32,000 nucleotides of DNA from contig NC_010163.1 of the NCBI RefSeq assembly GCF_000018785.1, positions 1,170,001-1,202,000 on the forward strand, read 5' to 3'. Made by a program: the position numbers and the translations under genes. Positions 1-23,947 of the stretch are shown here, piece by piece. Positions within the stretch are counted from its first letter, which is position 1. Every line of letters begins with the position of its first letter. The notes under the pieces are model-generated. The model saw nothing but the letters and a program-made list of their open reading frames with translations. It had not been told where the DNA came from and did no database searches. Origin of the DNA: Acholeplasma laidlawii PG-8A. Its GTDB lineage: Bacteria; Bacillota_I; Bacilli_A; Acholeplasmatales; Acholeplasmataceae.

Positions 1-1965
1 ATCCTGGTGCTACCTCTTGTAGTTTAATTAAATTATTAAATTTATCATAGAATCTAACTTCATAATAAAGATATGTTTCATCAAATAATGCTTTAATGGT
101 GCGATTTTCTTTAACTGCTAAGCCGTTATTATCCCAACCGACAAATGTATATTTAATTTGATTTGTACTAGTTTTATAACCTACTGGGAATGTGACATTT
201 TGACCCCAACCAACTTGTATTTTGGTTGTTTCATCACCATTAATAAGTGTGACTTCATAACTAATTAAACGTGATCCCTTATTTAAGTTAATTGTCTTTT
301 CTGCTGTAATAAAGTCTAGTGTGCTACTCCAAGATATAAAGTAATATTCATAGCCTGTAGCTTGATTTGGATGATCCTTTAGGTAAGTTGTTAAATCTGG
401 TGCTACTGCATCTTTTCCATATAATACATATTGTGTATTTAAGATGGTTGCACCATCTGTAAAGGTAATTAAGTATTGTCCAGCTACTTCTTGGTAGTTT
501 GCATATACTAAAGTATCTGAGGTAATATTTTTATAATTTGCACCCCAAGAGATAAACTTATAACCAATTTCTTTTGTACCTTCTTTAAATGGTATACCTT
601 CTGGTAATATAGCTGTTTTACCATACTCGGTTTCTACAGTCTTATAAACTGTATCTTGATCAATCATAAATGTTACTTGGTAAGTTCTTGGACTTGATTT
701 AAACACAGGATATATTTCTAGATTTCCCGTAATAACAGTAAAATCTTGATCCCAACCATCAAATGTATAAATTTCAGATACACTTGATGGTTTGGTTGGA
801 TTATTTATTGGTTGAACTGCACTATTTAAATATTCAACAACTTGTACTTTATCAATGATTTTGCCAAAGGCATCGTAAAACGATACTTCATAATATCTAT
901 CTACTCTAATGAATTTAGGTCTTACATTTAAGTTTTCTGTAATATAAGCATAATCTTCTATCCAACCATCAAACTTATAGGCATCATTGCCTGCTGGTGC
1001 TTGAGTTGGCACCTCACTTGGATGTGCAGCCATATCACCATATAGTACTTGTTGACTAGATAAAATACTACCATCACCATTAAAGAAGTTTACTGTATAA
1101 CTTCTTCTAACTTCTTTGAACTGTGCAATTACATCCATACTTGTTGTAATACTTGAAATATCTTTATCCCAACCACTAAATTCATATTTGAATTCAGGTG
1201 TTTGAGCCTTAATAGGTAATACACTTGGTGGTTCTACACTAAATAAATACTCACCCATTTTTGTTTCTATATGCATACCATCAAAGTTATAGAATTTAAT
1301 TTCATAATATCTTTGAACTGGTGTAAAGATTGGATGAATATCCATTGACTCAGTAATTACTACATTAAAGTTATAATCCCAACCTTCAAAGTGATACGCA
1401 TAAGTATCATAAGTTTTTGTAGGTATTTTACTTGTAGGTTGAATATATTGATTATATTCACCTTTTTGACGCTCAAACAAATGACCATCACCGTCATAAT
1501 AATTAATTGTATAGTATCTATCCATTTGATGATACTCTGCACGTATTTGAGTTGGTTTTAAAATTTGAGTACCATTAAAATCAAATATCCAGCGCATATA
1601 TTCATAAACATATAATGCATTTTTATTCTTTAATGGAATTAACCCGTCTGGTTGTTGAACATATTGTCCATGTCTAATTTCTTCTTCATGAATTACTTTA
1701 TTGTTGCCATCTATAAACTGTACTAAGTGATATGCTTCTTCCCATTTAGCATAGACTTCAATGTCTTTTTCTTCGTTAAATACTTGGATACTTTGACCCG
1801 ATTTATTAGTAAGTTGAATCTCTATACCATCTTGATCATAATACCAACCTAAGAAGTTATATCCAAAGTATGTTGGTACATATAATTGATAGTGTTCATT
1901 GTCTAATACATATTGTAGATTTTCATTTGTTGTTTCATTAAGTTCTTCAAATGTTACTGTGTATA
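1..1965 (-). repeat. Array of at least 9 Listeria-Bacteroides (Flg_new/InlB B-repeat-like) units of about 70 aa inside the giant CDS. It continues past the window edge.
   Basis: The pattern Y-x-V/I-x-F...G...V.YG...P...Y.F.GW recurs about every 205-215 nt. The GW-type motifs are FLGWYYD, YMRWIFD, FEGWDYN, FSGWDKD, FDGWIED, FDGWDQD, FISWGAN, FISWSST and FVGWDNN. Positions 1141-1560 were translated by hand; the rest was read by eye. Confidence 0.7.
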
Positions 1966-4900
1966 GTCTATTGTATGTACTTTCTTTAGATAGTGCTTGA
2001 ATGTGTGCTCTACTATCTTGAGCAAATACTTTTAACTGTGGATAATTTTCATTGAGTTCATTTAAGTTATAATTGGTTGACCAATGATCTAAGGGGCTTA
2101 CAAAATTCATTTGGTTAGAACTTGCACCAAATACATTTTGTCCAATCATGAATCTATGATCTAGTCCTTTAACATTATCACCATTAAAGGATGAACCGAC
2201 CGCACCTAGTGGTTTCGTGTGTGTTGTAGTATTTCGGTATGCACCTAATAAGGTTACATCAAAGTAACTATTATGAATACTTCCTGTATGGTAGAACCCT
2301 ACTAACATACCTATATGATTCTTACCATAGATAACGCCAGTGTTATAACTGTTGTATAGTGTTCCATTTAAGTATGCAGTTAAACCAGCTACATAATCAC
2401 TACCTGTAACTTTACCTTTATTGTATACATTTTTGATGACACCATTATTTGTAGCTGCAATACCAGCTACATATTGGTTCCCCACAATCACTGCCTGATT
2501 ATAAACATTTTCAATGACGCCATCATTGATTGCAGCAATGCCAGATACAGAATTTCTACCTGAAATATGACCTGATACACTAATATTTCTAACTTCACCG
2601 GTTGTACCTATATGACCAAATAATGCTTGATAGTCTAGTTGATTAGATACATGTACTCTAACATTGATACCTTTCCCATCTAAAATACCACTAAATGGTT
2701 TATCTTTTGTTCCTACAGGTGCAAATTTATAGTTGGACGGATGATCTACAAAGTTAAGTTCATCTATATCGCTACTTACTTCAAAATAAACACCTTTATA
2801 GGAATTACCATTGGTTGTACTATCAGCTAGTGCTAACCAGTCACTTTCATTTCTAATGAGGTAAGGATTTACCATGCTACCATCACCAACAATGAATGTA
2901 TGTGTTTCAACGGATTTTAAAGAGTCTTCTCTAACGTAGTCAAAACTACTGTTAGAAAACACAGTAAATTGTGGATAGAATGATGTAGAAATTAAACTTG
3001 GTAACATTTTGTATTTATTAGGGTTTGCAAGGTTCATGTTAGTAACTGATAAAGCGTGCATACCAATCATTTGACCGTGGTATAACCCGTTTGTTCTTAC
3101 ATCACTAGTTTTATTACCTACTGGATATTGAGGTTTTTTGTAACCTGATAAATCGCTTTGGTTGGTGACATCTATATCATAATAAATGGATGATAAATTA
3201 CCGTTTTCAATGAAACCGATAATAATACCAATGTCTTCAACACTATAGATTTCACCAAATTGGTAGACACTAGAAATTGAACCTGTGTTCATATAAGCAA
3301 CAATACCTGCAGCTTGACCTTTTTTACTTAAAATCATACCAGCGTTATAAGCTTCACTTAAATTACCAGCACTAAAGTTACCAACAATACCAGCGGCATT
3401 TTGGTTTGTAGCAATAATCTGTCCACTATTAAATACTTGATAGATAATAGAACTATTAGTACCAGCAATACCAGCAGCAATACTATCTTTTGCAAGAATA
3501 TGACCGCTGTTATAACTATTAGAAATTTCACCCATATTATGTCCTGTAATACCGGCAACGTTACTAAATCCAGTAACATCATTTCTATTATAGGCATCCA
3601 TAATTACACCATCATTTTGACCTGTAATACCACCTGTATATGATCCATTGGATGTTATTTTTCCTTGGTTAGTTACACGTTTAATTGTACCTTGGTTAAA
3701 TCCTACAATACCACCAATATCATTACCCAGTGTAGAAGTAATATGTGCATGATTATAAATATTTTCTATTGTACCTAAGTTTCTACCTGCTAAACCACCT
3801 AAATATGCATGTCCACGAATATTACCAGTAATGACCATGTTAGATACTTTAGCTGTTTCACCGATTGTGTGGAAGATACCAAGATATTCTGAATTTGTTG
3901 AAAGTTCAATAATAAATCTAGCTTGTTTACCATCAAAGATACCACCAAAGTTATATTCATTTGAACCAATTGGAGTATAACCTAGATCTTCTAAGGTTAA
4001 ATCAATTTGCGTAACTTTCGGTGCTACTTCAAAATATTTACCAACGAACTCATGGCCATCTCTAACATAATCACCAATGATCATCATGTCGTAACCATCA
4101 TAAATAAGATATGGATTTAACTTTGTTCCTAAACCTTCTAACTTATTATACGTAATACTTTCTAGTGAATCTTCTACAAAAACATTATATGCATGATCAA
4201 TGAATATATATAGTTCTGGGAAGTAGGTTGTAAAATCTGTTCCTTGTTTGGTTTGATATAAACTTTGATCAAAGTTCATTTGTGTAATATCATCACCTAA
4301 ACTATAGATAAATGTCATTTCACTTAATGTCCTAGCACTTACATGTGCGCTGTCTTCTACATTATAAATGGCATGTTTTACTAATTTATTTGAATCTAAT
4401 TGTTTCATATTTTCTATTTCTGTTGAATTATAATATGCATTTGAAATAAGTCCCTTATTTTCTACTACAATACCAGCAGCATAGCTATTTGCAGATAACT
4501 GGCCACTATAGAAAATTTCATTTATTTCACCTTCATGGATTGCAGCTATACCTGCTGCATAACTATTTGCAGTAATTGAAGTGGTTGCGTATGCATGTTC
4601 CAAACTCCCTTTAAAGTGACCAAATAAGCCACCAACATAGTTTGATTTAGAGGCATGAATTACACCACTTGAAAAGACATTCGTTAGAATAGATTCGGTT
4701 TCAATATAACCAATTAACCCACCAACATAGTTACTAGATGCATAAATTGAGCCCATAAAATATGTAGCATTTGCAGTGATTGTTTGACTGTGTCCTATCA
4801 TACCACCAACATAACTTAATCCTTCTACTACGCCCTTTAAGCTAATATTTAATAATTCAGTTATTTGGCTATCTCCTGCTAATAAACCAACATAATCATG

Positions 4901-7900
4901 ACCAGTTACGACCATATCTTTAATGTAAATATTAGAAACAACACCATTTAATCTACCCGCAAGTGCTCCAACGTAATGTTTACCTTGTACTTCTCCTTCG
5001 AGTAGAAGATCTTTAATCAGTGCATCTTCTGATACAACACCAAACAACCCTTGATAATCCTTATTTGGGTTTTCTATTTTTAAGTTTATAGTTTGATTAC
5101 TTCCATCAAATGTAGCCTTAAATGGATTACTATATGTACCAATTGGTTCATATAAGTTTTTAATTGGTTCAAAATCAATAATTGCATCTTGATAGACTTT
5201 ATAGACTTGATCGATAGTATCTAGACCATCTTTAACTGCAATACCTAATCCACGTAAGTCATAACTGCTATATATTAAATAAGGGTTTATTGAAGTACCT
5301 TCACCATAAAGAAGTGGATGCATTACAGAGTTTCTTGAATCAGTTGTAATGTGTGATTTAGATGATGTTTCAAATACTTTTAGTTGAGGATAGAATGCAT
5401 CAAATGCTTGACTTTGTCTTGATACAAAGACACCTGTTTCAAATGTTACAAATAACTGTTCAGATGTTAATTGATTTTTATACACTGCATTTGGACCGAT
5501 AGTGGATGGTTTAAAGTATCCACTTGTATCATTTAAGATAGGTTCAATGGCAAAGTAGGCATTTTCTATGACACTCACACCATCTGTTCTACCATATAAA
5601 CCTGAAATATAACCACTTCTTTCAGAGGTGATTGGACTTGCTTGATAGACGTTATATAAGTTACCACCTAAATAACCTGCGATACCACCTGTACCTCTTA
5701 GTGATGTACTTAAAGTAGAATGAATATTACCAACGTTATAGGCGTTTTTAATCATTCTATTTCTTACAATACCACCTGTAATACCACCTACATAGACACC
5801 AGTTGATTGTATATTTCCTGTATTAAATGTGTTTATGATGTCATGATTTGCATAACCTGATATACCACCAATATAGTTAGTACCTGTAATATGAGCTAGG
5901 TTATAACTATTTTCAATGATTCCATAGTTTCTACCTGATATACCACCAATAAAGTTAGTACCCTTAATACTACCTTCAACGCTGACATTCTTCACATAAC
6001 CGTTTGATCCAATAACACCAAATAAACCTTGGTATTCAAAGTTGTTATTTAAGTTAATATTAAATTTGACACCTTGGCCATCAAATGAACCTTGGAAATT
6101 GACACTGCTATTACCAATTGGTACATAAGGTATATCTAATAAGGTTAAATCAATATAGTCTACATCACTTGCTACTTTAAAGTAAGTATTTAACAAGCTA
6201 TAACGTGCCCCAATCATTTGACTTACAGATTCCATATCATAATGCGTTCTAATGATATATGGATCTTCAAAAGTTCCACTACCTTCATTAAACTTACTAA
6301 TGGTTACACTATCTTTAGAATAATCTTTAATTGGTTTATATATACTCTTTGAAAAACCTTTAATTTGTGGGTAATATGCATAGAAACCTACACTATTTTC
6401 AAATGTCCATTCATTTTCAAATACTAAGGTACCACTGTATAGTTTGTGACTTACAACACCATAGACACTATCTGTATTACCTTGATTTCCTGTTGCAATA
6501 AACGGTTTTGAATATCCTGTAATATCAGGGCTAACCTCTATTTTAGATTCATTGTAGTAAAGATTATATAACTCAGAAGCGTTTGATCCTACAATGCCGC
6601 CAACATAGGATGTCCCATAGATATTTGAAGATGCATATCCATCAGAAATAATGCCCGTATTATTACCTGAAATACCACCGATATGTTCGTTTCCTCTTAC
6701 ACTACCAATTGCGTAACTTACACGAACTTCTCCGTGGTTTGAGCCGGTTATGCCACCAACATTATCTTTACCTACTAAATCTGCTGTTGTAAATACATTT
6801 TCTATAACACCATAGTTTACACCAGCAATAGATCCTACAAAGTTATTTCCAGTGATACTTCCAGATACACTTAAATTCTTGACGTGAGCAGTATCTCCAA
6901 GATAACCAAATAATCCTTGATAATTTGATGAAGTATTCATCTTTACAACAAAATTCGTATGCGTACCATCAAAAGACCCTTTAAATTGTGTAGCGATTGA
7001 ACCAATAGGTTTATAGTTCACTTCATAAGTTAGATCGATAACCGATACATCTTCTTTAACTTTAAAGTAGATACCTTCAAAATCTATACCACTAGAAACT
7101 AAGTTAGAAAGTATTTCCATGTCATATTTATTGACAATTACATAAGGAACATCAAAACTACCTTCACCTACAAAAACATAGGATTTAACAGACTCGATAG
7201 AGTCTTTTTGAACGCGCTCACTTAGGTGAGTGCTAAATACTTTTAATTGTGGATAGAAAGCTTCAACACCATTTGTTTCAATAAATACCCATTCATTACT
7301 ATCTAGTGTCATATTAGATTGTCCTTTAAGCCCGACAATCTCTGTTTTACTTAAACCTTTAATATGTTCTTGATTGAGCTTGTTGCCAATGGATTGAATT
7401 GGTACATTATATCCTGTTGGGACTACGATGGAATCAATAATAGATGCATCATAATAAATATCTGATTCAAAGGTTGTACCTTCAATACGACCAATCAAGC
7501 CACCAAGATAACCTGTATTTTTACCTAAAATGACCCCAGCACTATAACCTTGAGAAATTTGACCGTTTCGGTGTGCACCTGTGATACCACCTATATAAGT
7601 TGCTGTTGTTGTACCTTCAACCATACCTCTGTTATAAACATAAGAAACATTATTAGCGTTATATAGATAACCTACAATACCACCAACTACTTGAACACCT
7701 TTAATATGTCCAAAGTTAAACACTTTACTAATTGTACTTGTTTGACTAAAACCGATAATACCACCAATATCTCTTGAGATTGCAGTAACATTGGCCATAT
7801 TATAGATATTATTTATATTGGAGTTTGTGCTTAAACCAATTAAACCACCAACATATCTTGTACCTAAAACTTCTGCATGATTAAAAATATTAGATATACT

Positions 7901-10900
7901 TGCACCATTGATTTCACCTGCAAGGGCACCAACATAATTTCTACCATGTACTTTACCAGTAATTTCAATATTTTTAACTTCTGCGTTTTGACCTAAATAA
8001 CCAAATAAACCTAAGTAATCTGTTGTAGTTTTTAATAATTCAATTTGGATTGTCACACCATTACCATCAAATCCACCTTTAAATTGTTGATTGATGCTTG
8101 CACTGTGACCAATACGTTCAAACCCTAAACCTTCTATCGTTAAATCAAGTAGACTTACACCATCTATTACCTTAAAGTATATGCCATCTAAGTTATTAGA
8201 TTTAGTGATGTCTGATAAAGCCTTCATATCCGCTTCATGACGAATGATATATGGGTTTGACTTAGAACCAGATCCATTCGCAAACCTAATTACACTTGTA
8301 TATAAGAGTGCATTTGTGCGTACCACACTACTTGCATGTTCTGCAAATGATTTTAATTGAGGATAGTAATCATATAAGCCATTTGTAGGGCTTAACTTCC
8401 ATAAATCATTACTTAATAAAATACCTTCTTGACTAAATACTTCTATACCTGTTAATGCTTCTTTTTCAACTTTAAAGTGATTAAATACAATTAGATTTCC
8501 AACAGCGTTATTTGGTTTAATAAAGCCATCTAAGATATCATCATAATAAATAATTGTACCATTATAATTTAAGTTTGAAATGAGTTCATTAGAACTAAAT
8601 CCTACAAGTGCACCCACATGGTTTTGACCATGGATCCTACCACCATAATAACCTTCATGAATGGTGCCTTCATTAAATCCTACAAGACCACCAACACCTT
8701 GGCTACCTGTAACATTTCCAGTACTAAACATTGTGTCTAGACTACCCTTATTATAACCTACTAAACCACCAACATTTTGGTTACCTGTAACATGAACCTT
8801 CGCATAGACATTTTCTATTTGTCCATCATTTTTACCAGCAACACCACCAACGTAGTTATTACCTTTTATAGTTCCTGAAACTGATAAATTTGAAATGGAT
8901 GCACCTGATGAAAGTTGACCAAATAGACCAACATAGTTTTTATCCATCATATCAAGTTCAATGATAAAGTGTGTATAGTCACCATCAAAGTGACCCTTAA
9001 ATGGTACATCTTGACCAATTGGTTTATAGTTTGTTCCAACTAAATTCATTTCAAATACATTTGGTGCAACGATATAGTATTTACCAAGTGCATCATATTC
9101 ATGTGATATAGAGTGTGAAAGTATTACCATATCATCTACATTTCTAATTAAATATGGACTTTCTTTTGTACCATCACCAGTAAATGGATTAGTTCTTGTT
9201 GAAATAATTGAATCATTTACAACATGTTCATTTGCATTTTCTGCAAAATATTTTAATTGAGGAAAATATGCATAATTGCCTTCAATTTCTTTAAAAGTCC
9301 ATGTGTTTAAATTAAAACCTCTTGTCAGCATTTGATCATTAAACATGGTTGCTTTATCAAGACCTTGGCCACCTAATGCATCACTTGGTTTAACATACCC
9401 TGATAATGGTGTAAAGGTTCTTAACATGGTGACTTCATAGTAGTTGTTTGTGTTTGTTAAATAACTTCCACTTGCTGAGGCATAGACCCCACCAACTCTC
9501 GATTTAGACGATACATACGCTGCATTATAGTTATATCTAATATTGGAGTTATTTTGGTAGCTTGCTAGTATTTGTCCAACAATACCACCCACTAAATCTG
9601 CTCCAATAACTTCACCTCTATTATAAGTATTATAGATATGACTTTGTAATCCTGCAGCCCCGACTACACCACCTACATAGTTTCCTGTGGATGTTACTTT
9701 AGCGTGGTTATATACGCGTTGTACGGTTGCACCTGTCATGTAACCTACAACACCACCGGTGTAGTGTCTTCCTTCTATACTTGCTAGGTTATAGACGTTT
9801 TCTACAGTACCACTAACTTGGTATGCCACAACACCTGATACATAATCATTTCCTTTAACAGATCCTGTAACATATAAGTTTCTTATCACACCAACACCAA
9901 AATAACCAAACAGTGCTTGGTAATCTTTTGTAGTATCTAAGGTATTTATATGAAACTCTGCGTTATTTCCATCAAACGTTCCATAAAATCTCTTTGTTGG
10001 TGTTCCAATGGGTTCGTAATCTTCAAAGACGAATCTTGTTACACCATCTGCTACCTTAAAATAGAACCCTTCAAAGGTATTCCCGTTTTTGACTTTGTTA
10101 TTAAGTTCGATAAAGTCTTCTTCATTATAGATAATAAACGGCATATCCGATGTACCCATACCATCTTTAATATCTAATGTGACTGACTCTTTAGATCTAG
10201 TTTTAGTTGTTGCTACTTCATTTTGACTAAATACTTTGAGTTGTGGGTAATACCCTAACTCATCCGTTTTTTCTTCAAAGTAAAAGTGTGTATTAGGTAA
10301 GAGTGCACTACCTTGAATCATTTGGCTCGTATTTTTTGCGTGTAATGCTGTTTCTAAACTTGATGGTTTGATTAACCCTTCTGGTTGATAATAATTAGCG
10401 ATTACGATAACATCGTAATATAAATTGGTAAGTCCTAAGTAGCTACCACCTGAGGCTACTCCATATACACCACCAACAGATCCTTTACCCGCTACTTTAC
10501 CTCTACTATAAACATGTCTTAAATAACTATTATTTGTATATGCTGCATAAATACCACCAGTAATACCACCGACATAAGTACCACCAATAATCTCACCTAT
10601 ATTATAGGCGTAATCTAATATACCATTATAGTAGGTTTGACCGGTAATACCACCGACATAGTTTTCAGTACCTGTGATGTTTGCTGTATTATATACATTT
10701 TGTACTCGGCTTCCTGTATGATACCCTACAATACCTGATACATAATTTCTACCAGTTACACTTCCAGATACCGATAAGTTTTCTATCACACCTGTTGTGT
10801 GATAACCAAATAAACCTTGGTAATCACTATCTGGTCGATTAATATCCAATATAAAGTTTGCACCATTTCCATCAAATGAACCTAAAAATGGTTTAGTTGG

Positions 10901-13093
10901 TGATCCAATTGGAATAAAGTTTCCTAAATCAAATTCAGTTAAACCTGCATCGACTTTAAAATGATAATTTAAATAAGTATTTCCTTTAGACACTGCCAGT
11001 GATAAATCATGCATGTCTTGTTCTGTCTTTATTAAAAACGGGGTTGTCTTTGTACCGAATCCATAAGATACATCCATTTTTACTGAATCTATGGAATCGA
11101 GTTTAATTTCCACATTTGGATTGGTTGTAAATATTTTTAGTTGTGGATAATATGCATAATCCCCTGATTTTGCTTTTAACTCCCAAATCGCTGCGTTATA
11201 CCCTAGAGTAACGAGTTCACTAAACAGTAAGAAGTCTGAGGTTTTACCTTGTGCAATATTTGTTGTGCCTGGTTTGTTATAACCTAAACCTGGGTCAAAA
11301 TCTGTAAGGATGGATGTATCGTAATAGTTATTGGTGTCTGTTAAATAACTTCCACTTGCTGAGGCATAGACCCCACCAACTCTCGATTTAGACGATACAT
11401 ACGCTGCATTATAGTTATATCTAATATTGGAGTTATTTTGGTAGCTTGCTAGTATTTGTCCAACAATACCACCCACTAAATCTGCTCCAATAACTTCACC
11501 TCTATTATAAGTATTATAGATATGACTTTGTAATCCTGCAGCCCCGACTACACCACCTACATAGTTTCCTGTGGATGTTACTTTAGCGTGGTTATATACG
11601 CGTTGTACGGTTGCACCTGTCATGTAACCTACAACACCACCGGTGTAGTGTCTTCCTTCTATACTTGCTAGGTTATAGACGTTTTCTACAGTACCACTAA
11701 CTTGGTATGCCACAACACCTGATACATAATCATTTCCTTTAACAGATCCTGTAACATATAAGTTTCTTATCACACCAACACCAAAATAACCAAACAGTGC
11801 TTGGTAATCTTTTGTAGTATCTAAGGTATTTATATGAAACTCTGCGTTATTTCCATCAAACGTTCCATAAAATCTCTTTGTTGGTGTTCCAATGGGTTCG
11901 TAATCTTCAAAGACGAATCTTGTTACACCATCTGCTACCTTAAAATAGAACCCTTCAAAGGTATTCCCGTTTTTGACTTTGTTATTAAGTTCGATAAAGT
12001 CTTCTTCATTATAGATAATAAACGGAAAACTTTGTGTCCCTATTCCGTCAGTAATATCCACCTTAACAGATTGAATTGAGCTGTTTTTCTTATAAGCTAG
12101 CGTGTCGTTAGGATGATTAATAAAATATTTTAATTGAGGATAGAATCCAAATCCCTCAGTCCTAGGTTCAAAATGCCAATAGTCTCCATGAAGTGATTTA
12201 GAATCCATATCATAAAGTTGTTGACTATTTTTTGCATGTGCTGTGGTTTCTAGGCTAGATGGTTTAACATACCCTTCCGGTTGATAATAATTAGCGATTA
12301 CGATAACATCGTAATAAGCGTTTGTGAGACCAAGGTAACTACCACCTGAGGCTACTCCATATACACCACCAACAGATCCTTTACCCGCTACTTTACCCCT
12401 ACTATAAACATGTCTTAAATAACTATTATTTGTATATGCTGCATAAATACCACCCGTTATACCACCAACATACGTACCACCTATGATTTCACCTGTATTA
12501 TAGGCGTAATCTAATATACCATTATAGTAGGTTTGACCCGTAATGCCACCGACATAATTTAGTGCACCATTTATAAACGCTTCATTGTAAACATTTAGTA
12601 TTCTACTATTTGTATGGAATCCAGCAATACCAGCAACATATGATTTACCAAAAACTCTACCACTTACAGATAAGTTTTCAATCACACCACCATTTACATA
12701 GCCAAAAAGACCTTGATAATCACTTTCAGGTCTATTAATGTTTAATATAAACTTGACACCGAAACCATCAAACGTTCCAGCAAACGGTTTAGTCGGTGAT
12801 CCTATTGGAATAAAATTGCCTAATCCAATTTCATTGACCGTTGACGATACTACAATAACTTTACCAGCAAATGTATTCCCTGCTAAGACAGCCTGAGATA
12901 AAGCATTCATATCTTCAGCATTACTGATGATATAAGGATTTGTCTCGGTTCCATCTTGGCCTTCTGCCATAAAAATAGACGCACCATATGGCGTTCTATA
13001 ACTAATAGTAATTTTTTCTTCATTGACTTCAGGTGACTGATTTGGTTGATTTAAAAGAATTATTAATGACGTTAAACATAAGATAACTAAGCA
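1..13093 (-). CDS. Giant modular secreted/surface protein, adhesin-like, more than 4,360 aa with the C-terminus beyond the window edge. It has an N-terminal signal/anchor, about 11 GLUG-motif modules, then Listeria-Bacteroides (Flg_new) repeats.
   Basis: The minus-strand frame with codon first bases at coordinates 1 mod 3 is open from the stop at 13109-13111 down to position 2. I hand-checked this at both ends and at 1141-1560 and 1921-2040. The track shows no closed ORF in this frame, consistent with the stop lying outside the window. The hand-translated N-terminus reads LSYLCLTSLIILLNQPNQSPEV...TNPYIISNAEDMNALSQAVLAGNTFAGK...PIGSPTKPFAGTFDGFGVKF...GLFGYVNGGVIENLSVSG...YVGGITGQ...YVGGITGG. 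The C-terminal part reads YYTINYYDGDGHLFERQKGEYNQYIQPTSKIPTKTYDTYAYHFEGWDYNF. The first in-frame start is TTG at 13093, but the start is ambiguous (see the A8 tract feature). Confidence 0.85.
9455..10141 (-). repeat. Copy 1 of a 687-bp 100% identical intragenic duplication, at an offset of 1884 bp (628 codons, in frame).
   Basis: Block-by-block comparison by eye of 9455-10141 with 11339-12025 found no mismatch. The antisense track ORFs 9950..10177 and 11834..12079 share an identical 64-aa prefix. Confidence 0.9.
11339..12025 (-). repeat. Copy 2 of the 687-bp identical intragenic duplication. The flanking module (12281-12560 vs 10385-10660) is also similar, roughly 85-90% identical by eye, with a 12-nt indel between the two matched regions.
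   Basis: Same comparison as copy 1. The next module is offset by 1896 bp, which is still a multiple of 3. Confidence 0.9.
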
Positions 13094-13102
13094 AATTGCT
13101 AT

Positions 13103-13110
13103 ATTTTTTT
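13103..13110 (-). promoter_or_regulatory. A8 (plus-strand T8) homopolymer that separates the RBS-proximal TTG start at 13128 from the giant ORF frame. It could be a phase-variation site, a slippage site or a sequencing error.
   Basis: GAAGAGGT-N8-TTG(13128) AAA AGT ATA AGA GTT AAA AAA AAT ... reaches TAA at 13072-13074 after 18 codons. With A9 the reading becomes MKSIRVKKKYSNLLSYLCLTSLIILLNQ..., a typical signal peptide fused in frame to the giant ORF. Confidence 0.5.
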
Positions 13111-13155
13111 TAACTCTTATACTTTTCAAATATAGTACCTCTTCATCCTAATAAT

Positions 13156-13184
13156 TAAAAAAAACCATGTATGCTACACATGGT
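13156..13184 (-). terminator. Intrinsic terminator/attenuator in the leader of the giant gene.
   Basis: The minus strand reads AACCATGT-gtagcat-ACATGGTT followed by a T-run (8 T in total). It ends about 28 nt upstream of TTG 13128. Confidence 0.7.
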
Positions 13185-13215
13185 TATAAATAGTTAAAAA
13201 AATTTATCTTCATTA

Positions 13216-13280
13216 TGCAGCTGGCTACCATTTTCAAGGCCCTATAGTTTTGCGCCCTATATTTTCATATAGTTTGCCAA
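13216..13280 (-). promoter_or_regulatory. Candidate c-di-GMP-I (GEMM-I) riboswitch aptamer.
   Basis: The minus strand reads tttGGCAAAC-TATAT-GAAA-ATATAG-GGCGCAAAAC-TA-tagggccttgaaaatgg-TAG-CCAGCTGC. This matches the remembered GEMM-I core: GGCAAAC, a 6-bp hairpin capped by a GAAA tetraloop, CGCAAA(G/A)C, a second hairpin closed by CTA/TAG, then GGUAGC and GCC.GCUGC. No covariance-model search was possible. Confidence 0.55.
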
Positions 13281-13303
13281 ATATTAATTTGGATGTATGA
13301 GTT

Positions 13304-13333
13304 AATTATAACAAAGCTATCAATCTTAAACAA
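13304..13333 (-). promoter_or_regulatory. Probable sigma-A promoter of the giant gene leader, with an extended -10.
   Basis: The minus strand reads TTGTTT-17 nt-TATAAT, with TG one base upstream of the -10 (TGtTATAAT). This predicts a leader of about 170 nt. Confidence 0.45.
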
Positions 13334-13499
13334 GTAAAACTATAATTTGACGACCTTATTAACCATTGTTTATTATTTTTCCGATGATAATTAGCTATTC
13401 AGCTTATTTTTACTACAATTCACCACACTTATTTGCAATATCTAGGAAACTACTGTTAATAATATTGATAAAATTATTAGAGAAAATTTTTTTTGTTTT

Positions 13500-13630
13500 G
13501 ATTAATTTCATAAATTATTTTACCCCTTTTCCTTATTTCCACTATTTACTTGGTTTTGCCTATCTAATACCCATATAAGTATACCATTTCCCTATTTGGG
13601 AATTCATAAATTGTAGTTATTGGATTAATG
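13500..13630. repeat. Direct repeat copy A, downstream of the AraC-family gene. It carries a decayed small-ORF remnant (MNSQIGKWYTYMGIR*).
   Basis: 13544-13630 aligns with 14708-14790 at roughly 80% identity by eye (tacccat.taagtataccattt.cctatttg.g...gttattg.a.ttatg). Similarity extends further left, with an insertion of about 30 nt in copy A. Confidence 0.7.
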
Positions 13631-15306: not shown

Positions 15307-15384
15307 AGCATAGAATTTTTAATAAACAAATATTGTTTAGGACTATTGGCGCCAATTTAAAATGTCATCGATAGCCCTTTTTTA

Positions 15385-15408
15385 ATAAAAAATGCCCTAA
15401 AAGGGCAT
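15385..15408 (-). terminator. Intrinsic terminator downstream of tRNA-Cys.
   Basis: The minus strand reads ATGCCCT-ttt-AGGGCAT followed by TTTTTATT. Confidence 0.6.
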
Positions 15409-15455
15409 AATTTGGTATTATTTGGTAGTTTTTTGCTACCAATTAAAGATTTCTT

Positions 15456-15530
15456 TGGAGGCCCCGATCGGATTTGAACCGACGCGTCAAGGTTTTGCAG
15501 ACCCATGCCTTACCGCTTGGCTACGGGGCC
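15456..15530 (-). tRNA. tRNA-Cys (GCA).
   Basis: The minus strand reads GGCCCCGTAGCCAAGCGGTAAGGCATGGGTCTGCAAAACC...GGTTCAAATCCGATCGGGGCCTCCA. It folds as a cloverleaf with anticodon loop CUGCAAA and an encoded CCA. Confidence 0.9.
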
Positions 15531-15635
15531 AAACACGCTATTATATTATACGTTTTGAAAACGTAAATGTCAATGATAAAAACAACCTACAAATGGGAGA
15601 GACTAGTTTCACACATTTAGTAGGTTGTTCTTCTT

Positions 15636-16592
15636 TTATATTTGAGTTTCTAAATTTGAAGCTATATGTTGTAAAACAAAATCTGTTGTTAGATTATGTT
15701 TTTTAACATAGCGATTATTTGGATGAATTCTACAAGCATGTGAACATGATCCTAAATATTTTTCTTCAGATGCTTCACTTGCAAGTATTTGTTTATTACA
15801 CTCTGGATTTCCACAGTTAATATATCGTTCACATGGTTCGTTTGTAAAGTAATCTCTACCAACTACGACATGCTCGTGTTTATTGATATCCACTGCAATA
15901 CGTTCATCAAATACATACATTTTACCATCCCAAAGTTTGCCTTCAGTATCTTTACTTGTACCATAGTTGTGGATACCACCATGCAATTGACCTGCCACAT
16001 TAAAACCTTCTTTAATTAACCAGCCGCTAAACTTCTCACATCTTACACCACCGGTGCAGTATGTTAGAATTTCCTTGTCTTTAAATTGATCTTTGTTTTC
16101 TCTAATCCAGTCTGGTAAATCTCTAAAGTTTTTAATTTCAGGTTTGATTGCCCCTCTAAAGTGACCCAAATCAAACTCGTAGTCATTTCTAGCGTCAATA
16201 ACTACTGTATTTGGATCTTGTAGTTTTTGATAAAACTCAATAGGTTCTAAATACTTACCTGTAATTTCAAGTGGGTTCACATCATCTTCTAAACTTAAGT
16301 TCACTAATTCTTTTTTAACACGTACATGCATTTTACTAAATGCGTGTGCATCTACTTCATCAATTTTAAAGAAGATATCTTCAAAACCTTGAAGACTTTT
16401 TAAATAATCCATGTAGTTTTCTGTTTGTTCAAATGTACCTGATAAGGTACCATTAATACCTTCACTAGAAACTAAAATACGCCCTAGTAAATCTTGGCTC
16501 TTACAATAAGCTAAATGCTCATCTTTAAACTTTTCTGGGTTTTCAATGGCTGTATACTTATAATAAAGAAGCACTCTATAATTTTTTTGCAT
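15636..16592 (-). CDS. trhO: Rhodanese-domain tRNA uridine(34) hydroxylase (UPF0176/TrhO family).
   Basis: 318 aa. It has the family N-terminus (YRVLLYYKY...[16 protein letters not shown]), the rhodanese active-site loop CTGGVRCEK and a C-terminal Cys-rich tail. An AAGGAAG RBS is present. Confidence 0.85.
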
Positions 16593-16629
16593 TTAAATCT
16601 TCCTTTTTTGTTCATTCATTTACCGGTTT

Positions 16630-16658
16630 ATTATACATAATTGTGGTATGTCTTACAA
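16630..16658 (-). promoter_or_regulatory. Probable trhO promoter.
   Basis: The minus strand reads TTGTAA-17 nt-TATAAT. Confidence 0.45.
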
Positions 16659-16682
16659 AAGATTTGCCTATATCACTCATTA

Positions 16683-16709
16683 TTAGCACTCATCACTTGA
16701 CAGTGCCAA
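16683..16709 (+). promoter_or_regulatory. CIRCE (HrcA) operator upstream of clpB.
   Basis: TTAGCACTC-N9-CAGTGCCAA compared with the consensus TTAGCACTC-N9-GAGTGCTAA: the left arm matches 9/9 and the right arm 7/9. It overlaps the -35 box. Confidence 0.75.
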
Positions 16710-16725
16710 TTATTCGGCATATAAT
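16697..16725 (+). promoter_or_regulatory. Consensus sigma-A promoter of clpB.
   Basis: TTGACA (16697-16702), a 17-nt spacer, then TATAAT (16720-16725). The AAGGAGGA RBS precedes the ATG at 16761. Confidence 0.75.
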
Positions 16726-16760
16726 AATGTTATATTATAGAATTTTAAGGAGGAAATAAT

Positions 16761-18887
16761 ATGCAATTTAACCCAATGGATGATTATTCAAAAGATCCTG
16801 ACATTTTAAAAAAGTTCGGTAGAAATATTGTAGAACTTGTTAAAGAAGGTAAAGTCGACCCAGTGATTGGTCGTGAGGAAGAGATTAGACGTATTATTAA
16901 AATTCTATCTAGAAAAACCAAAAACAACCCTGTTTTAATTGGTGAACCGGGGGTGGGTAAAACAGCGATTGTTGAAGGCTTAGCTAGAAGAATTGTTGAT
17001 AAAGACGTACCTTTAAGTCTGCAAAATAAAATTGTTTATGAACTAGACTTAGCTCAATTAGTTGCTGGTGCAAAATTTAGAGGTGAGTTTGAAGAACGTT
17101 TGAAGGATGTTTTAAATAAGATTAAAGAAAGCGATGGCCAAATCATCTTATTTATTGATGAATTACATAATATTGTAGGTGCTGGTCGTGCAGATGGTGC
17201 AATGGATGCCTCAAACATCTTAAAACCAATGCTTGCACGTGGTGAACTTCACTGTATTGGTGCTACAACATTAAATGAATACCGCTTATATATTGAAAAA
17301 GATAGTGCACTCGAAAGAAGATTTCAAAAGATCACTGTGACTGAACCAACTATGGAAGATACAATTTCTATCTTACGTGGACTTAAAGATCGATTTGAAG
17401 CACATCATGGTGTGCACATCTCTGATGGTGCCATCATCGCTGCTACAAATCTATCAGCACGTTACATTACAGATAGATTCTTACCAGATAAAGCAATCGA
17501 CCTTATTGATGAGGCTTGTGCTTCTATTCGTATGGAAATTGATTCTATGCCAGTGGAACTTGATGATGTTCAAAGAAAAATACTACAACTAGAAATTGAA
17601 AAATCTGCTTTAAGTAAAGAAACAGATACATTAAGTAAAGAGCGTCTATCTAAAATTAAATCTGAGATTGATGATTTAAAATTAGAGGAAGCCAGTCTAA
17701 AAAGTAGATGGGAAAAAGAAAAATCTCAACTTAATTTATCAAAACGCAAAAAAGAAACCTTGGAACAACTTAAAAACGAACTTAATACTGCTTATAACGA
17801 AGGTAACTATTCTAAGGCTGCAGAACTTCAATACTCAAAAATACCTAATCTAGAAAAAGAAATATCTGAATTATCAGATACTTCAACAGATGATAAACTT
17901 CTAACAGAAACTGTTACCCCTGAATCGATTGCTGAAATCGTAAGTAAATGGACCCATATACCTGTAACAAAACTAGTATCAGGTGATAGAGAAAAACTTA
18001 GAAACCTACGTTTAAGCCTAGGTAAACGTGTATTAGGTCAAGATCATGCACTAGAACTGATTAGTAACGCCATATTACGTCATCGTGCAGGTATCAAAGA
18101 TCCAAATAGACCAATTGGTTCATTCTTATTCTTAGGTCCGACTGGTGTTGGTAAAACAGAGGCTGCTAAAGCACTTGCTGAAAATTTATTTGACTCAGAA
18201 AATCATATTGTTCGTATAGATATGTCAGAGTATATGGAATCACATAGTGTCTCTCGTTTAATCGGCGCACCTCCAGGATATGTAGGTTATGATCAAGGCG
18301 GTCAACTTACAGAAAAAATAAGACGTATGCCTTACGCAATCGTCTTATTTGATGAAATTGAAAAGGCACATCCTGAAGTCTTTAATATCCTACTTCAAGT
18401 ATTAGATGATGGTCACTTAACAGATGGACAAGGTCGTACAATAGATTTTAAAAATACTGTCATTATTATGACATCTAACATTGGCAGTCAATATTTACTA
18501 GAAAACGCAAGTGATGCCCAAGAAAAAATAGATAAACTGCTAAAACAATCCTTTAAACCAGAATTTTTAAATAGAATTGATGAAATTATTACATTTAACT
18601 CACTTGGATTTAAAGTTCAAGTGGATATCACAAGAAAACTACTCAATGAACTTTCAGAAAAATTAAAAGAAGAAAACATCTACATTACATTGGGTGAAGA
18701 TGTTCAAAAATACGTTATCAAAAACGGATTTAATGAACAATTTGGTGCAAGACCACTTAAACGTTATATCCAAAGAGACATAGAAACATTTATCGCAAAA
18801 GCAATCATTTCAGAAGATGTACTGCCAAATCATCACTATGAAGTTATTGTAGACAATGATACATTAAACATTAAATTAGTCTCATAA
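16761..18887 (+). CDS. clpB: ATP-dependent chaperone ClpB, short form lacking the N-terminal domain.
   Basis: 708 aa. It has two AAA+ modules ([15 protein letters not shown] and GPTGVGKTE Walker A motifs), a long coiled-coil middle domain and the C-terminal ARPLKR motif. It begins at the position equivalent to about residue 150 of E. coli ClpB. Confidence 0.95.
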
Positions 18888-18893
18888 ATTAAA

Positions 18894-18925
18894 ATATCCC
18901 TATCACTAATTTGTGATAGGGATAT
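18894..18925. terminator. Bidirectional intrinsic terminator between the convergent clpB and Ppx/GppA genes.
   Basis: ATATCCCTATCAC-taattt-GTGATAGGGATAT, a 13-bp stem with T-rich tracts on both strands. Confidence 0.8.
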
Positions 18926-18927
18926 CT

Positions 18928-19827
18928 TTATTTTTGGATTTGTTCTAACAAGTAACCTTCTCTAATACCTGATTTACTTACAATAATTTCTTCAATATTA
19001 AAGAAATTCATTAAAGTTTCTAAAATTATTAGACCTGGCATAATCGTATGAATACGTTCTGGAATCATACGAATAATGGATAGATACGTCTTTTTCTTAG
19101 TAGGATCTATCTTTGAAATTAAATCTTGAATGTTTTGACGTGTTAACTTATCAAACTTCTTTTGGTAAAAGTTTTGTAGTAAAACAAGGCTTGCTTGAAC
19201 AGTTCCACCTATACCATAAGCTACTTTCACATCTACTTTATCTACTTTATGTAGTTTTAATGCTGCAACGACTGCAGATGAAATACGTTCTACTTCATGT
19301 GTAGTTGGAAAAATTTCTTTGACATAGGTAATATAGGTGTTTAATGACCCTAAATTAAGCGATACAGAGTCTTTAAGCTTACCATCAGTTACGAGTGATA
19401 ACTCTGTGGAACCACCACCAATATCAACAATTAACCCTCTATCAATTTTGTGATTAAGTGATACACCTTTATAGCCATAATAGCCTTCTTTTTCTTCATC
19501 TAGTAGTTCTACTTTCATCCCTGATGCTGTTTTAATACGGGTTAAGATTTCATTTTGATTACGTGCTTCTCTAATCGTTGCAGTCGCAATCATAAATAGT
19601 TTTTCTAATTTATAACTTTGACTTACTTCCATAAAATCTTTAACAACTCGAATCACAGAATCGATACCTAAATCAGATAAATAGCCTTCGGGTAATAAGT
19701 AACTCGCTAAACCTACAACTTCTCTTTTTGAAAATATATTGGTTAGTTTATGATTCTCATACGTAAATATTTCTAACCTAAGTGAATTAGATCCTAAATC
19801 AATAATGCCATAGTTCATATTAATCAC
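18928..19827 (-). CDS. Ppx/GppA-family phosphatase (exopolyphosphatase / guanosine pentaphosphate phosphohydrolase-like).
   Basis: 299 aa. It has the N-terminal ASKHA-fold motif GIIDLGSNSLRLEIF and a second phosphate-binding motif VDIGGGSTE. The true start may be the Met at 19818. Confidence 0.8.
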   Translation of the reverse strand: MINMNYGIIDLGSNSLRLEIFTYENHKLTNIFSKREVVGLASYLLPEGYLSDLGIDSVIRVVKDFMEVSQSYKLEKLFMIATATIREARNQNEILTRIKTASGMKVELLDEEKEGYYGYKGVSLNHKIDRGLIVDIGGGSTELSLVTDGKLKDSVSLNLGSLNTYITYVKEIFPTTHEVERISSAVVAALKLHKVDKVDVKVAYGIGGTVQASLVLLQNFYQKKFDKLTRQNIQDLISKIDPTKKKTYLSIIRMIPERIHTIMPGLIILETLMNFFNIEEIIVSKSGIREGYLLEQIQK

Positions 19828-19942
19828 CGCCCCTTTAATTATATAATATCAAAGAACATGTATTTTGTGTGTATGTTTTACATATAAATGATTTGAAAAT
19901 ATGCTAAATACTTGGTATCATTAACTAAAGGAGATTTAAACA

Positions 19943-20626: not shown

Positions 20627-20638
20627 TTAAAAAAAGAA

Positions 20639-20673
20639 ACTGCGTTATACCTTAAATTAGGGTATAACGCAGT
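20639..20673. terminator. Bidirectional intrinsic terminator.
   Basis: ACTGCGTTATACC-9 nt loop-GGTATAACGCAGT, flanked by an A-run and a T-run. Confidence 0.8.
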
Positions 20674-20676
20674 TTT

Positions 20677-22287
20677 TTATTTGGATAGAATGATTTCATT
20701 TAATTGTGATACTTCAAGTGGTTTATAATAATAAAAACCTTGGACATAGTCTACATCATGTAGTTTTAATATATCAATTTGTTCAATGGTTTCAACACCT
20801 TCTAAAACTATCTTTTTAGACATCGCATGCGATAAGTCTAAAACAAACTTTAAGAAATGTCTTTCAGTTGGTGATTTATCAATTTTGGCGATAAAGTCCT
20901 TATCCATTTTAATAATGTCTACTGGTAAATGTTTAAAGTAAGTTAATGAAGAATATCCACTTCCAAAATCATCTAATGCGACTAAAAAACCTTTCTCTTT
21001 GAGTTGTTTTAAGACGATGATTGTTTGATCAATATTTTCAAGTGCCATCGATTCAGTGATTTCAATAATCACTTGTTTATGATCGATTTCATGTTTTTTG
21101 ATGTAACTTCCAATATCTTCTATGAATGTTGGATGCATCAATACCTTGGGTGAAATATTAATATCTACTGTAAAGTGTTTACCCATTTCATTCCAAGTTT
21201 TAATTTGACCAAATACCTTATCATATAAAAAGTGTGTAAGTTCTAAAATAGAACCCGATATTTCAGATAGATATATAAAATTATTTGGTGGAATATAACC
21301 CATGGATGGGTGATTCCATCTAAGTAGTGCTTCTAACTTTCTAATTTCACCTGATTTAAAATCTAGAATTGGTTGATAGACTACATAAAATTCATTGTTT
21401 TGAAGTGAAGGTTTGATGGCATTTGTAATTTCATATTCACGTTCTTTGGATTCATGCATAAAGGTATTATAAATCACTACTTGGTCTTTACCGTTTTTCT
21501 TTGCAGCTGATAATGCAAGATTAGCATATCTTAAGATATCTCCATATACCAGTCCGTGATCTGGATAGATAGCAACCCCTGCAGATGCTGAGTAAAAGTA
21601 AGCTTCACTTTGTTTAGACATTAAGTTTTTTACTTTGTTGATACTTAAATCCGCAAGTGTCTTAATTTCATCTAGATGTTCAAATTGATAGAATACTAGA
21701 ACAAATGAATCTTCGCTCATTCGAGCTACAATATGTTCCTTACCAACCTTCGTAAGTTCTTTAGCAATGAGTAATAATGCCTCATCACCCCATTTATGCC
21801 CTTTTAATTCGTTGATTGCACCAAAGTCATCAATATCTAGATAAAGCAGCGCAAAAGGTGTTCTATTTTGAATTAAACGGTTAACCTTAATCTCTAATCG
21901 GTTACGATTGATTAAGCCCGTTAAAGCATCGAAATAGGCTAAATTGAAGTGTTTTTCTTCTAAGGTGGTCAGTTGTTTATTTTGATATTCTAATTCAAAT
22001 AGAACCTTTTTTAATTGTTCATTATTTGATAAGTACTTCTTAACTCTTCTATACACAATAATATAATAGACCAGGCCAATAAGACCCAGAGAAATAAAGC
22101 CCTTGAGAGTTTGAATCACTTGAGCGGTGTTTGGATCTGTTACATACTCTAAAATCAACCAATCACTAAACCATATATATGCATAAGCACATATAAAGTA
22201 TGCTAATGTGATTTCAGTTGATTCCCTAAACGCTGATTTTACTTTTTTTTCATCCTGATGAACATTATTTTGCATTTGTAACTCCAT
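20677..22287 (-). CDS. Membrane-anchored c-di-GMP phosphodiesterase-type protein with a degenerate GGDEF domain and an intact EAL domain.
   Basis: 536 aa with two N-terminal TM segments and a coiled coil. The GGDEF fold is present (FDALTGLINRNRL, LDIDDFGAINE), but the signature reads ARMSEDSF instead of R.GG(D/E)EF. The EAL catalytic set appears complete: LEALLRW, DINIS, EITES, DDFGSGYSSL, KMDKDF, EGVET and QGFYYYKP. Confidence 0.85.
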   Translation of the reverse strand: MELQMQNNVHQDEKKVKSAFRESTEITLAYFICAYAYIWFSDWLILEYVTDPNTAQVIQTLKGFISLGLIGLVYYIIVYRRVKKYLSNNEQLKKVLFELEYQNKQLTTLEEKHFNLAYFDALTGLINRNRLEIKVNRLIQNRTPFALLYLDIDDFGAINELKGHKWGDEALLLIAKELTKVGKEHIVARMSEDSFVLVFYQFEHLDEIKTLADLSINKVKNLMSKQSEAYFYSASAGVAIYPDHGLVYGDILRYANLALSAAKKNGKDQVVIYNTFMHESKEREYEITNAIKPSLQNNEFYVVYQPILDFKSGEIRKLEALLRWNHPSMGYIPPNNFIYLSEISGSILELTHFLYDKVFGQIKTWNEMGKHFTVDINISPKVLMHPTFIEDIGSYIKKHEIDHKQVIIEITESMALENIDQTIIVLKQLKEKGFLVALDDFGSGYSSLTYFKHLPVDIIKMDKDFIAKIDKSPTERHFLKFVLDLSHAMSKKIVLEGVETIEQIDILKLHDVDYVQGFYYYKPLEVSQLNEIILSK

Positions 22288-22335
22288 TAGTTTGTATAGT
22301 GTAAGTTAAGTGAATTAAGACAGTTATTTATGATT

Positions 22336-22710: not shown

Positions 22711-22724
22711 GTTTTTTGCCCCTT

Positions 22725-23159: not shown

Positions 23160-23192
23160 TTAGAATAATCCCCTTTCGTACGTACATAAATT

Positions 23193-23221
23193 ATTATATT
23201 ATAATTCGTTCGATATTTCAA
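23193..23221 (-). promoter_or_regulatory. Probable promoter of the SHOCT-SHOCT-EAL operon.
   Basis: The minus strand reads TTGAAA-17 nt-TATAAT. An 8-bp palindrome GTACGTAC (23178-23185) lies between the -10 and the RBS. Confidence 0.5.
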
Positions 23222-23236
23222 AAATAATTGATAATT

Positions 23237-23896: not shown

Positions 23897-23947
23897 TGTA
23901 TGATTCCTTTCAAATTTAAACTACTTTGATTATATCCTTATGGAATG

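Follow-up and report, generated by a model that had tools for sequence, protein, structure and literature searches.

Class I c-di-GMP riboswitches have already been described in front of genes for surface and adhesion proteins. The class I switches of C. difficile are transcriptional OFF switches, for example before flgB, and one of them precedes the gene of the calcium-binding adhesion protein CD2797 (PMC11477304). In B. thuringiensis, the collagen adhesion protein Cap is under an ON switch, the Bc2 riboswitch, whose antiterminator forms on ligand binding (PMC4933901). A preliminary description of the locus considered here had mentioned such riboswitches before large adhesins, and these reports bear it out. 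Within the class I aptamer, the interhelical pair C44-G83 is universally conserved (PMC4744006). Among the mollicutes, Acholeplasma laidlawii is exceptional in encoding 14 GGDEF/EAL proteins, a number reported in 2008 (PMC2408644).

We analyzed a window of 32,000 nucleotides from A. laidlawii PG-8A, whose ClpB is 98% identical to the A. laidlawii protein. On the minus strand, positions 13288-13213 carry a full-length c-di-GMP-I (GEMM-I, RF01051) aptamer. The covariance-model match spans model positions 1-87 of 87 and scores 54.3 bits, compared to a gathering score of 35, with E = 3.9e-8 for the 32-kb window searched on both strands with 4,227 families and 8e-10 locally. The GEMM-I assignment of the preliminary description is therefore upheld by the RF01051 score, and the sequence features it had picked out are all present on the minus strand where it placed them. 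When the whole window was compared with the 4,227 Rfam families, c-di-GMP-I was the sole riboswitch at or above its gathering score, and the scan yielded no second credible family at the aptamer site. The c-di-GMP-II model (RF01786) returned zero matches between 13000 and 13650 on either strand, even at E <= 10; the one extra match in this permissive rescan was a spurious sRNA. Within clan CL00126, RF01051 is the top scorer at this aptamer. The downstream gene (1..13129, minus strand) runs off the window after more than 4,376 codons and encodes a surface protein with an N-terminal hydrophobic anchor or signal, GLUG motifs, and Listeria-Bacteroides repeats. From the family match and the conservation described below, we consider that this element very likely functions as a c-di-GMP-I riboswitch in the leader of this giant surface-protein gene of A. 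laidlawii.

The aptamer reads GGCAAAC-UAUAU-GAAA-AUAUAG-GGCGCAAAAC...GGUAGCCAGCUGC (13278-13217, minus strand), and its functional nucleotides were assigned from the model alignment. The G20 equivalent, which contacts one ligand guanine, is G13278, a G that precedes the GC junction pairs and is itself unpaired, within the GGCAAAC string where it had been expected. It is invariant in 26 of 26 related aptamers, 19 of which were gathered by a pattern that fixes conserved single-stranded positions and leaves the stems free. The intercalating adenine A47 (role from PMC4744006) corresponds to A13251, in agreement with the preliminary description, and the G20-to-A47 spacing of 27 nt equals that of Vc2, Vc1, and Bc1 (PMC4744006, PMC11218506). 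Between them, the G45/C46 equivalents (13253-13252) form the junction pairs with C22/G21 (13276-13277). The C44 equivalent, partner in the interhelical pair (role from PMC4744006), is C13254 and pairs with the G83 equivalent, G13225, which lies within GGUAGC; both nucleotides are invariant in the 26 related aptamers. The same GGUAGC motif had been taken to supply C92, which is incorrect. The C92 equivalent, making the Watson-Crick contact with the second guanine, is C13217, which stands in CAGCUG-C-AUAA and aligns to the leading conserved C in 'gCCgaa' of the model.

Structurally, the P2 hairpin CUAUAU-GAAA-AUAUAG (13257-13272) comprises 6 bp closed by a GNRA tetraloop, as seen in both the model alignment and folding. 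The GAAA-capped, P2-type hairpin recognized earlier is the P2 of the model, and all six of its pairs covary. The P3 hairpin is of a short form, AACU..GGGCC-UUGAAAAU-GGU-AG-CC-AGCU (13219-13249), with the distal helix of the model deleted in the alignment and an A-C mismatch (13248 with 13220) at its base. A candidate P1, identified by eye, would pair the 5' strand AUUAAU (13283-13288) with AUAAU (13216-13212) in 5 bp with one bulged A. This helix is weak and A/U-rich and is absent from the RNAfold prediction; an orthologous metagenome leader, L122, can form an equivalent, UUUAAU/AUGAA, in which a U-A pair is changed to U-G. The isolated aptamer region is no more stable than its shuffles (z = -0.86), so stability alone lends no support to the assignment. 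Weak isolated folding is usual for A/U-rich aptamers that rely on tertiary and ligand contacts. Compared to Vibrio cholerae Vc2 and the RF01051 family, the window aptamer shares the G20/A47/C92 and C44-G83 equivalents, the GC junction pairs, and the 6-bp GAAA-capped P2. It differs from Vc2 in having no distal P3 helix, its CCU...AUGG receptor halves being joined by a 5-nt loop, in its weak, A/U-rich P1, in a joining strand of 4 nt and not 5 nt, and in an A instead of a C following C92.

The nucleotides at positions 20, 47, and 92 bear directly on the ligand. GEMM-I variants of altered specificity exist, with G20A binding cGAMP and a G20A/C92U mutant binding c-di-AMP (PMC7288161). The variant families share the Rfam clan with RF01051, and nearby lineages carry a U at position 92, all of which could favor an aptamer for another cyclic dinucleotide (3'3'-cGAMP or c-di-AMP) or one with promiscuous binding. 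The consensus of one such clan member, RF03167 ('GGC'), reads GACGC-G-AA. Taken together with its name, this indicates that the three-letter names denote positions 20/47/92, and canonical members would then be G-A-C, as in the window. None of the altered nucleotides of cGAMP-sensing GEMM-Ib and of the variant families c-di-GMP-I-GGC (RF03167) and -UAU (A20; G47; U20/U92) occurs in the window aptamer, which instead has the canonical triplet G20/A47/C92. Moreover, since RF01051 is the best match in the clan, RF03167 must score below 54.3 bits and hence under its own gathering score of 59. The genome also encodes GGDEF/EAL enzymes (PMC2408644). A ligand other than c-di-GMP, or a relaxed specificity, is accordingly very improbable, and the element presumably senses c-di-GMP.

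The second hairpin had appeared unusually short in the preliminary description, suggesting a minimal or variant aptamer. We scanned 185,579 species genomes with a GEMM-I pattern comprising a 6-bp P2, a GNRA loop, and 10-22 nt from CGCAAA to AUGNNAGC, and found this short-P3 form at no fewer than 120 genome loci. The majority of the loci listed read ...GGGCCUGUAAAAUGGCAGCCAGUUGCA..., which is nearly the window's own sequence. Among the matches listed, sources include Lachnospiraceae, Clostridia, Fusobacteria, and Paenibacillus, as well as metagenome-assembled genomes (MAGs) of Acholeplasmataceae, Anaeroplasma, and Izemoplasmatales. All 18 non-mollicute loci sampled match clan CL00126 (17 to RF01051, 1 to RF03167), and the mollicute-type loci all score 52-68 bits. 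The short P3 is therefore a widespread GEMM-I subtype, and the idea of a new minimal aptamer was ruled out, the form being common to at least 120 loci and present also in the RF03167 consensus. The P3 of this subtype keeps the CCU and AUGG halves, which resemble an 11-nt receptor, around a small A-rich loop, of 5 nt in the window, and we infer that it may act as a hairpin-capped tetraloop receptor. Window and subtype (Lachnospiraceae, Clostridia, mollicute-like) have the same architecture and a near-identical P3 and 3' tail (GGGCCUUGAAAAUGGUAGCCAGCUGCA). The window differs by lineage-specific substitutions and the A-C mismatch at the P3 base, common to L122 and a further locus, L042.

The association of aptamer and gene was examined from the protein side. 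Metagenome contigs were searched with the first 350 residues of the giant protein, with no reference to RNA, which retrieved three loci (L121, L122, L123) at 49-62% identity. Their genes encode GLUG proteins, and all three loci carry RF01051 matches ending 80-90 nt before the gene. At L121 two complete riboswitch units lie in tandem (L121a, L121b), while L122 and L123 share the 5' flank of the window. Sequence changes in these leaders preserve the helices. The P2 of L122/L123 shows a compensatory change from U-A to C-G (the loop-closing pair in L122), the L121 copies have G21-C46 swapped to C-G or U-G, and at another locus (L025c) C22-G45 is swapped to U-A. Across the 26 mollicute-lineage aptamers, 98.4% of cells in the alignment are paired (96.8% in P2), and 9 of 17 pairs have changes in both partners, among them the six of P2 and the two of the junction. 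At the junction pairing is complete (100%), with one pair being GC in 22 aptamers, CG in 3, and UG in 1, and the other CG in 25 and UA in 1. None of 500 shuffles reached the observed values, and sliding the 3' partners reduced pairing to 13-42%. Conservation in homologous leaders, a comparison to which the preliminary description had pointed, is thus observed as RF01051 matches, retained key nucleotides, and stems with compensatory changes.

These data also bear on whether the element could be a chance resemblance or a decayed, non-functional relic. Such a reading could draw on the A/U-rich region folding no better than shuffles, on the weak P1, and on the mismatch at the base of P3. Against it stand the E-value of 3.9e-8 for the covariance model, the conservation with compensatory changes before genes whose proteins are only 49-62% identical, and a promoter, terminator, and antiterminator that are all intact (see below). 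We consider a relic or chance match the least likely of all the alternatives. Look-ups of exact proteins, namely the upstream AraC/GyrI-like protein and the two closest N-terminal homologues (P0001, P0002), returned zero contigs. A synteny comparison with a named A. laidlawii-type assembly did not place the riboswitch segment at the same position; the whole riboswitch/giant-gene segment is strain-variable.

Upstream of the aptamer lies a predicted sigma-70 promoter (13305-13333, minus strand), consisting of a -35 element TTGTTT (13333-13328), a 17-nt spacer, and the extended -10 element TGTTATAAT (13313-13305) that had been noted before. The -35 is weak and agrees with the consensus at 3 of 6 positions, which is why a consensus scan missed the promoter. 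An extended -10 (TGCTATAAT) likewise precedes the orthologous aptamer in L122/L123. As judged from these elements, the transcript would start near 13298. Downstream of the aptamer, an intrinsic terminator (13157-13185) is formed by the stem AACCAUGUGU-AGC-AUACAUGGUU (13185-13163) with a 3-nt loop, followed by U8 (13164-13157). Folding gives it 10 pairs and -10.0 kcal/mol, to be read against 0.5 terminator-like sites expected per 900-nt region from shuffling. An 8-bp hairpin with T8 had been reported here; the run of eight stands, and the stem has 10 pairs. A U7 run (13204-13198) was considered as a first terminator and dropped, as it has no stable stem before it and is not conserved in L122. 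The giant gene begins with a Shine-Dalgarno sequence AAGAGG (13143-13138) and a TTG start codon (13129-13127), and the TTG start and first residues (LK..R.VK) are kept in L122.

A fold of the full leader pairs CAUCC/CUC (13295-13291, 13301-13299) with GGAUG/GAG beside the Shine-Dalgarno sequence (13148-13139), which could point to translational or dual control by sequestration of the ribosome-binding site. The L122 leader has no counterpart of this long-range pairing, which we treat as a chance occurrence. It also lies upstream of the aptamer core and is thus uncoupled from ligand binding, and in every orthologue a strong U8 terminator stands between the aptamer and the ribosome-binding site. 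Control at the level of translation is hence highly doubtful, and a transcriptional platform, as originally proposed, is present, its logic being conserved in L122 and L121a.

This logic resides in the 3' tail of the aptamer. In the unconstrained leader fold, P2 forms, and the tail GCUGCAUA-UG pairs with CA-UGUGUAGC (13182-13173), a segment made up of the terminator hairpin's 5' arm and its loop, so that the terminator cannot form. The predicted antiterminator 5' strand, GCUGCAUA-A-UG (13211-13221), overlaps the base of P3 (three pairs), C92, and the 3' strand of the candidate P1. When the aptamer tail is withheld or sequestered during folding, the terminator forms. The two alternative pairings are conserved. 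In the window, L122, and L121a alike, the complement of the tail coincides in part with the terminator's 5' half, while the sequences differ: the window has GCUGCAUA/UGUGUAGC, L122 has CAGC+GCAUG/CAUGC+GCUG, and L121a has a perfect 9 bp of CAGUUGCAA with UUGCAACUG. This covariation of the antiterminator in three independent orthologous leaders is suggestive and not statistical. In L121b an antiterminator is not evident; its terminator keeps its stability in either state, and the complement of the tail falls within the loop. A different pairing had been hinted at in the preliminary description, in which an aptamer segment partly mimics the 3' arm of the terminator. The resemblance of AAAUGGUA to the 3' arm is real, but the AAATGGTA mimic is not the conserved alternative pairing. 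The mimic (AAAUGGUA / ACAUGGUU) makes 5 contiguous pairs with the terminator 5' arm and has no counterpart in L122, and it was rejected as the switching element.

Comparing the two states, the fold with aptamer plus terminator and the antiterminated fold amount to -23.5 vs -28.2 kcal/mol in the window, -26.2 vs -29.2 in L122, and -27.4 vs -30.8 in L121a, as thermodynamic values without a ligand term or co-transcriptional kinetics. The ligand-free minimum is therefore the antiterminated fold, by 4.7, 3.0, and 3.4 kcal/mol, respectively, and from its greater stability in all three leaders an OFF switch is predicted. Tight ligand binding could plausibly overcome energy gaps of this size.

We postulate that transcription would start at the extended -10 promoter, approximately 20 nt upstream of the aptamer. 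At low c-di-GMP, an antiterminator would arise by pairing of the tail GCUGCAUA-UG with the downstream hairpin (5' arm plus loop), allowing RNA polymerase to read into the giant gene. With c-di-GMP bound, the tail would be kept in the aptamer by the base of P3, C92, and the weak P1, the 10-bp hairpin with its U8 could form, and transcription would stop. The net effect would be a transcriptional OFF switch, with high c-di-GMP leading to less of the giant surface protein. Overall, a class I c-di-GMP riboswitch with a termination-based OFF mechanism in the leader of the giant GLUG gene is probable; for the direction taken by itself, OFF is favored with slightly less assurance. For a putative adhesin, OFF control would go against the widespread view of c-di-GMP as a signal that promotes adhesion.

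A close parallel is provided by the C. difficile class I switches, in which a class I aptamer is combined with a terminator platform of the OFF type. Their logic has been tested experimentally, whereas that of the window is deduced from alternative pairings that are conserved. The setting differs as well, since the window belongs to a mollicute without a cell wall and its switch precedes the gene of a GLUG/Listeria-Bacteroides-repeat protein that exceeds 4,376 residues. In Bc2, too, the 5' UTR of a large surface adhesin gene contains a class I aptamer and is under termination/antitermination control, but in the window it is the ligand-free state that is predicted to be antiterminated. Were the window aptamer to work as an ON switch in the manner of Bc2/Cap, the ligand would prevent termination and high c-di-GMP would induce the surface protein. 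This would fit the expectation that c-di-GMP favors adhesins (PMC4933901; class II switches, PMC11477304) and the clearly ON-type architecture of many related copies in Acholeplasmataceae MAGs.

Those MAG copies (L010, L015, L020, L034, L111, L115) belong to the same lineage and have the short-P3 aptamer, with RF01051 scores of 54-68 bits. Their platform is built differently. The 5' arm of the terminator is itself the 3' strand of the aptamer, GCCAGUUGUCAUU...AAUGAUGCUGGC followed by a U run, so that the folded aptamer prevents termination. In these copies P1 is clear (AAUG/CAUU) and U takes the place of C92; they often occur as 2-3 copies in tandem and lie upstream of a gene for a membrane protein of ~235 aa and not of a GLUG giant. 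In the window, L122, and L121a, by comparison, the terminator is a separate hairpin without any aptamer strand, and the 3' tail is complementary to the terminator 5' half, so that a folded aptamer frees the terminator. We found no pairing by which a bound aptamer would disrupt it. The contrast with the ON-type copies supports the view that the separate terminator and tail complement of the window constitute a different, OFF-type platform, and an ON switch at this locus is unlikely.

With regard to the source of the signal, a GGDEF+EAL protein is encoded at 20677..22287 on the minus strand (Pfam EAL 4.8e-66, GGDEF 3.9e-28), 7.4 kb from the riboswitch. Since the GGDEF motif has degenerated to SEDSF while the EAL signatures remain intact, it is likely a c-di-GMP phosphodiesterase. 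No mollicute lineage other than Acholeplasma is known to have retained c-di-GMP signalling, and the literature searched describes no output of it. The search likewise returned no paper linking Acholeplasma, c-di-GMP, and a riboswitch; PMC5289693 cites the genome paper of Lazarev et al. 2011, which lay outside this search, for 'riboswitches and T-boxes'.

The preliminary description had called a riboswitch of this kind on so large a gene notable. This was overstated, as the 14 GGDEF/EAL proteins have been known since 2008 (PMC2408644) and class I switches linked to adhesins are established. As a member of a well-studied family, the element is canonical and standard, and its subtype is common. 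Any Rfam-based pipeline would annotate it, and knowledge of riboswitches would be unchanged. What is new is modest: the element's conserved association with GLUG surface proteins of giant size, its prediction as an OFF switch, and the strain variability of the whole segment.

A broader picture can be offered tentatively, at less than even confidence. In a wall-less bacterium, a conserved class I switch of the OFF type would let c-di-GMP repress a surface protein that varies among strains and has more than 4,376 residues, while sister lineages would use ON-type copies with U92 before another membrane-protein gene. Together these might form a small, riboswitch-based c-di-GMP regulon in Acholeplasmataceae, of opposite polarities and possibly of two ligand specificities. 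The giant protein probably serves in attachment, and for an adhesin a switch predicted to be OFF is the less expected outcome; if true, repression of the giant protein by c-di-GMP would reverse the usual association of high c-di-GMP with more adhesin. The findings suggest that c-di-GMP levels may set the expression of the giant surface protein, and the riboswitch provides a concrete target for c-di-GMP output in Acholeplasma.

The ligand-contact positions of the c-di-GMP-I aptamer are not uniform across the comparison loci. Copies from Acholeplasmataceae and 'Tenericutes' metagenome-assembled genomes (MAGs) read ...AGCCAGUUG-U-CAUU, and in the alignment to the Rfam model the C92 equivalent is a U, while G20 and A47 are retained. 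Such copies are found at L034 (2779-2706, minus strand) and, in two copies, at L010 (3015-3088 and 3150-3223), as well as at L015 and L020 (three copies each), L111 (two copies), L033, L040 and L115. The altered position is followed by a clear P1 (AAUG/CAUU). The expression platforms are predicted to be ON-type, with the units frequently arranged in tandem, and the downstream gene encodes a membrane protein of ~235 aa (MRLSTILG...). Judged from the aligned sequences, these copies would be natural 'G-A-U' variants. Because ligand specificity shifts when G20A/C92U changes are engineered (PMC7288161), these copies might prefer another dinucleotide.

Variation also extends to the helices and the junction. 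In the leaders of the giant-protein homologues L122 (aptamer 2317-2392) and L123 (aptamer 2128-2203), P2 is capped by AAAA where the window has GAAA, and CUGG replaces the receptor-like AUGG in P3; both presumed docking partners have therefore changed together. Within the 26 mollicute-lineage aptamers aligned for covariation, AUGG is missing from every aptamer with a non-GAAA loop (5/5). In the base helix of P3, the window has an A-C mismatch at the second pair (13248 with 13220, minus strand), as do the orthologue L122 and L042; the other mollicute copies have G-U or A-U there, and many Clostridia have G-C. Upstream of the giant-protein homologue at L121, two complete riboswitch-plus-terminator units lie in tandem (aptamers 3713-3788 and 3838-3913), and the junction pair G21-C46 is replaced in both, by C-G in one and U-G in the other. 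Although its A47 is canonical, the short-P3 aptamer of the comparison locus L008 (4074-4149, minus strand) reaches 62.5 with the model of RF03167 (c-di-GMP-I-GGC), a variant family whose gathering score is 59. This is apparently because that model likewise has a short P3, which may lead to mis-assignment by automatic annotation.

In the window, ~300 nt separate the AraC/GyrI-like gene from the riboswitch promoter, and this gap holds a 32-codon ORF (MKLIKTKKIFSNNF..., 13413-13511, minus strand), preceded by a purine-rich AAGGAAAAGGGG; Rfam returned no match in this region. Further along, a GGDEF+EAL protein is encoded at 20677-22287 (minus strand), and its gene is called shorter (376 aa) in a related assembly. 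As its GGDEF motif is degenerate (SEDSF) and its EAL signatures are intact (EALLR, DDFGSGYSS, EGVE), the protein is probably a c-di-GMP phosphodiesterase rather than a cyclase.

The giant gene carries an internal duplication of ~1.9 kb, with repeat copies 89-91% identical (9386-9685/11270-11569 and 10330-10629/12226-12525). Whole GLUG modules have thus been duplicated, which could favour recombination or assembly collapse. When the window was compared with L124 (GCA_015709225.1, an A. laidlawii-type assembly), positions 15378-28892 aligned at ~92% nucleotide identity from 15378 rightwards. Segment 1-15377, which carries the AraC/GyrI-like gene along with the riboswitch and the giant gene, is absent from the matching position in L124, which instead holds integrase/transposase (rve) fragments and unrelated genes. 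The similarity boundary (~15378) falls close to tRNA-Cys (15456-15530, minus strand), whose 3' end is ~80 nt away; no GC anomaly is seen. Given this absence and the proximity of the boundary to tRNA-Cys, the giant-gene locus looks strain-variable and tRNA-adjacent. At L001, from an Anaeroplasma MAG, a predicted ON-type c-di-GMP-I riboswitch (3380-3306, minus strand) precedes a gene whose secreted product is at least 1,089 aa long and includes a bacterial Ig-like domain (aBig_2); here too, a riboswitch and a large surface protein are paired in the mollicute lineage.
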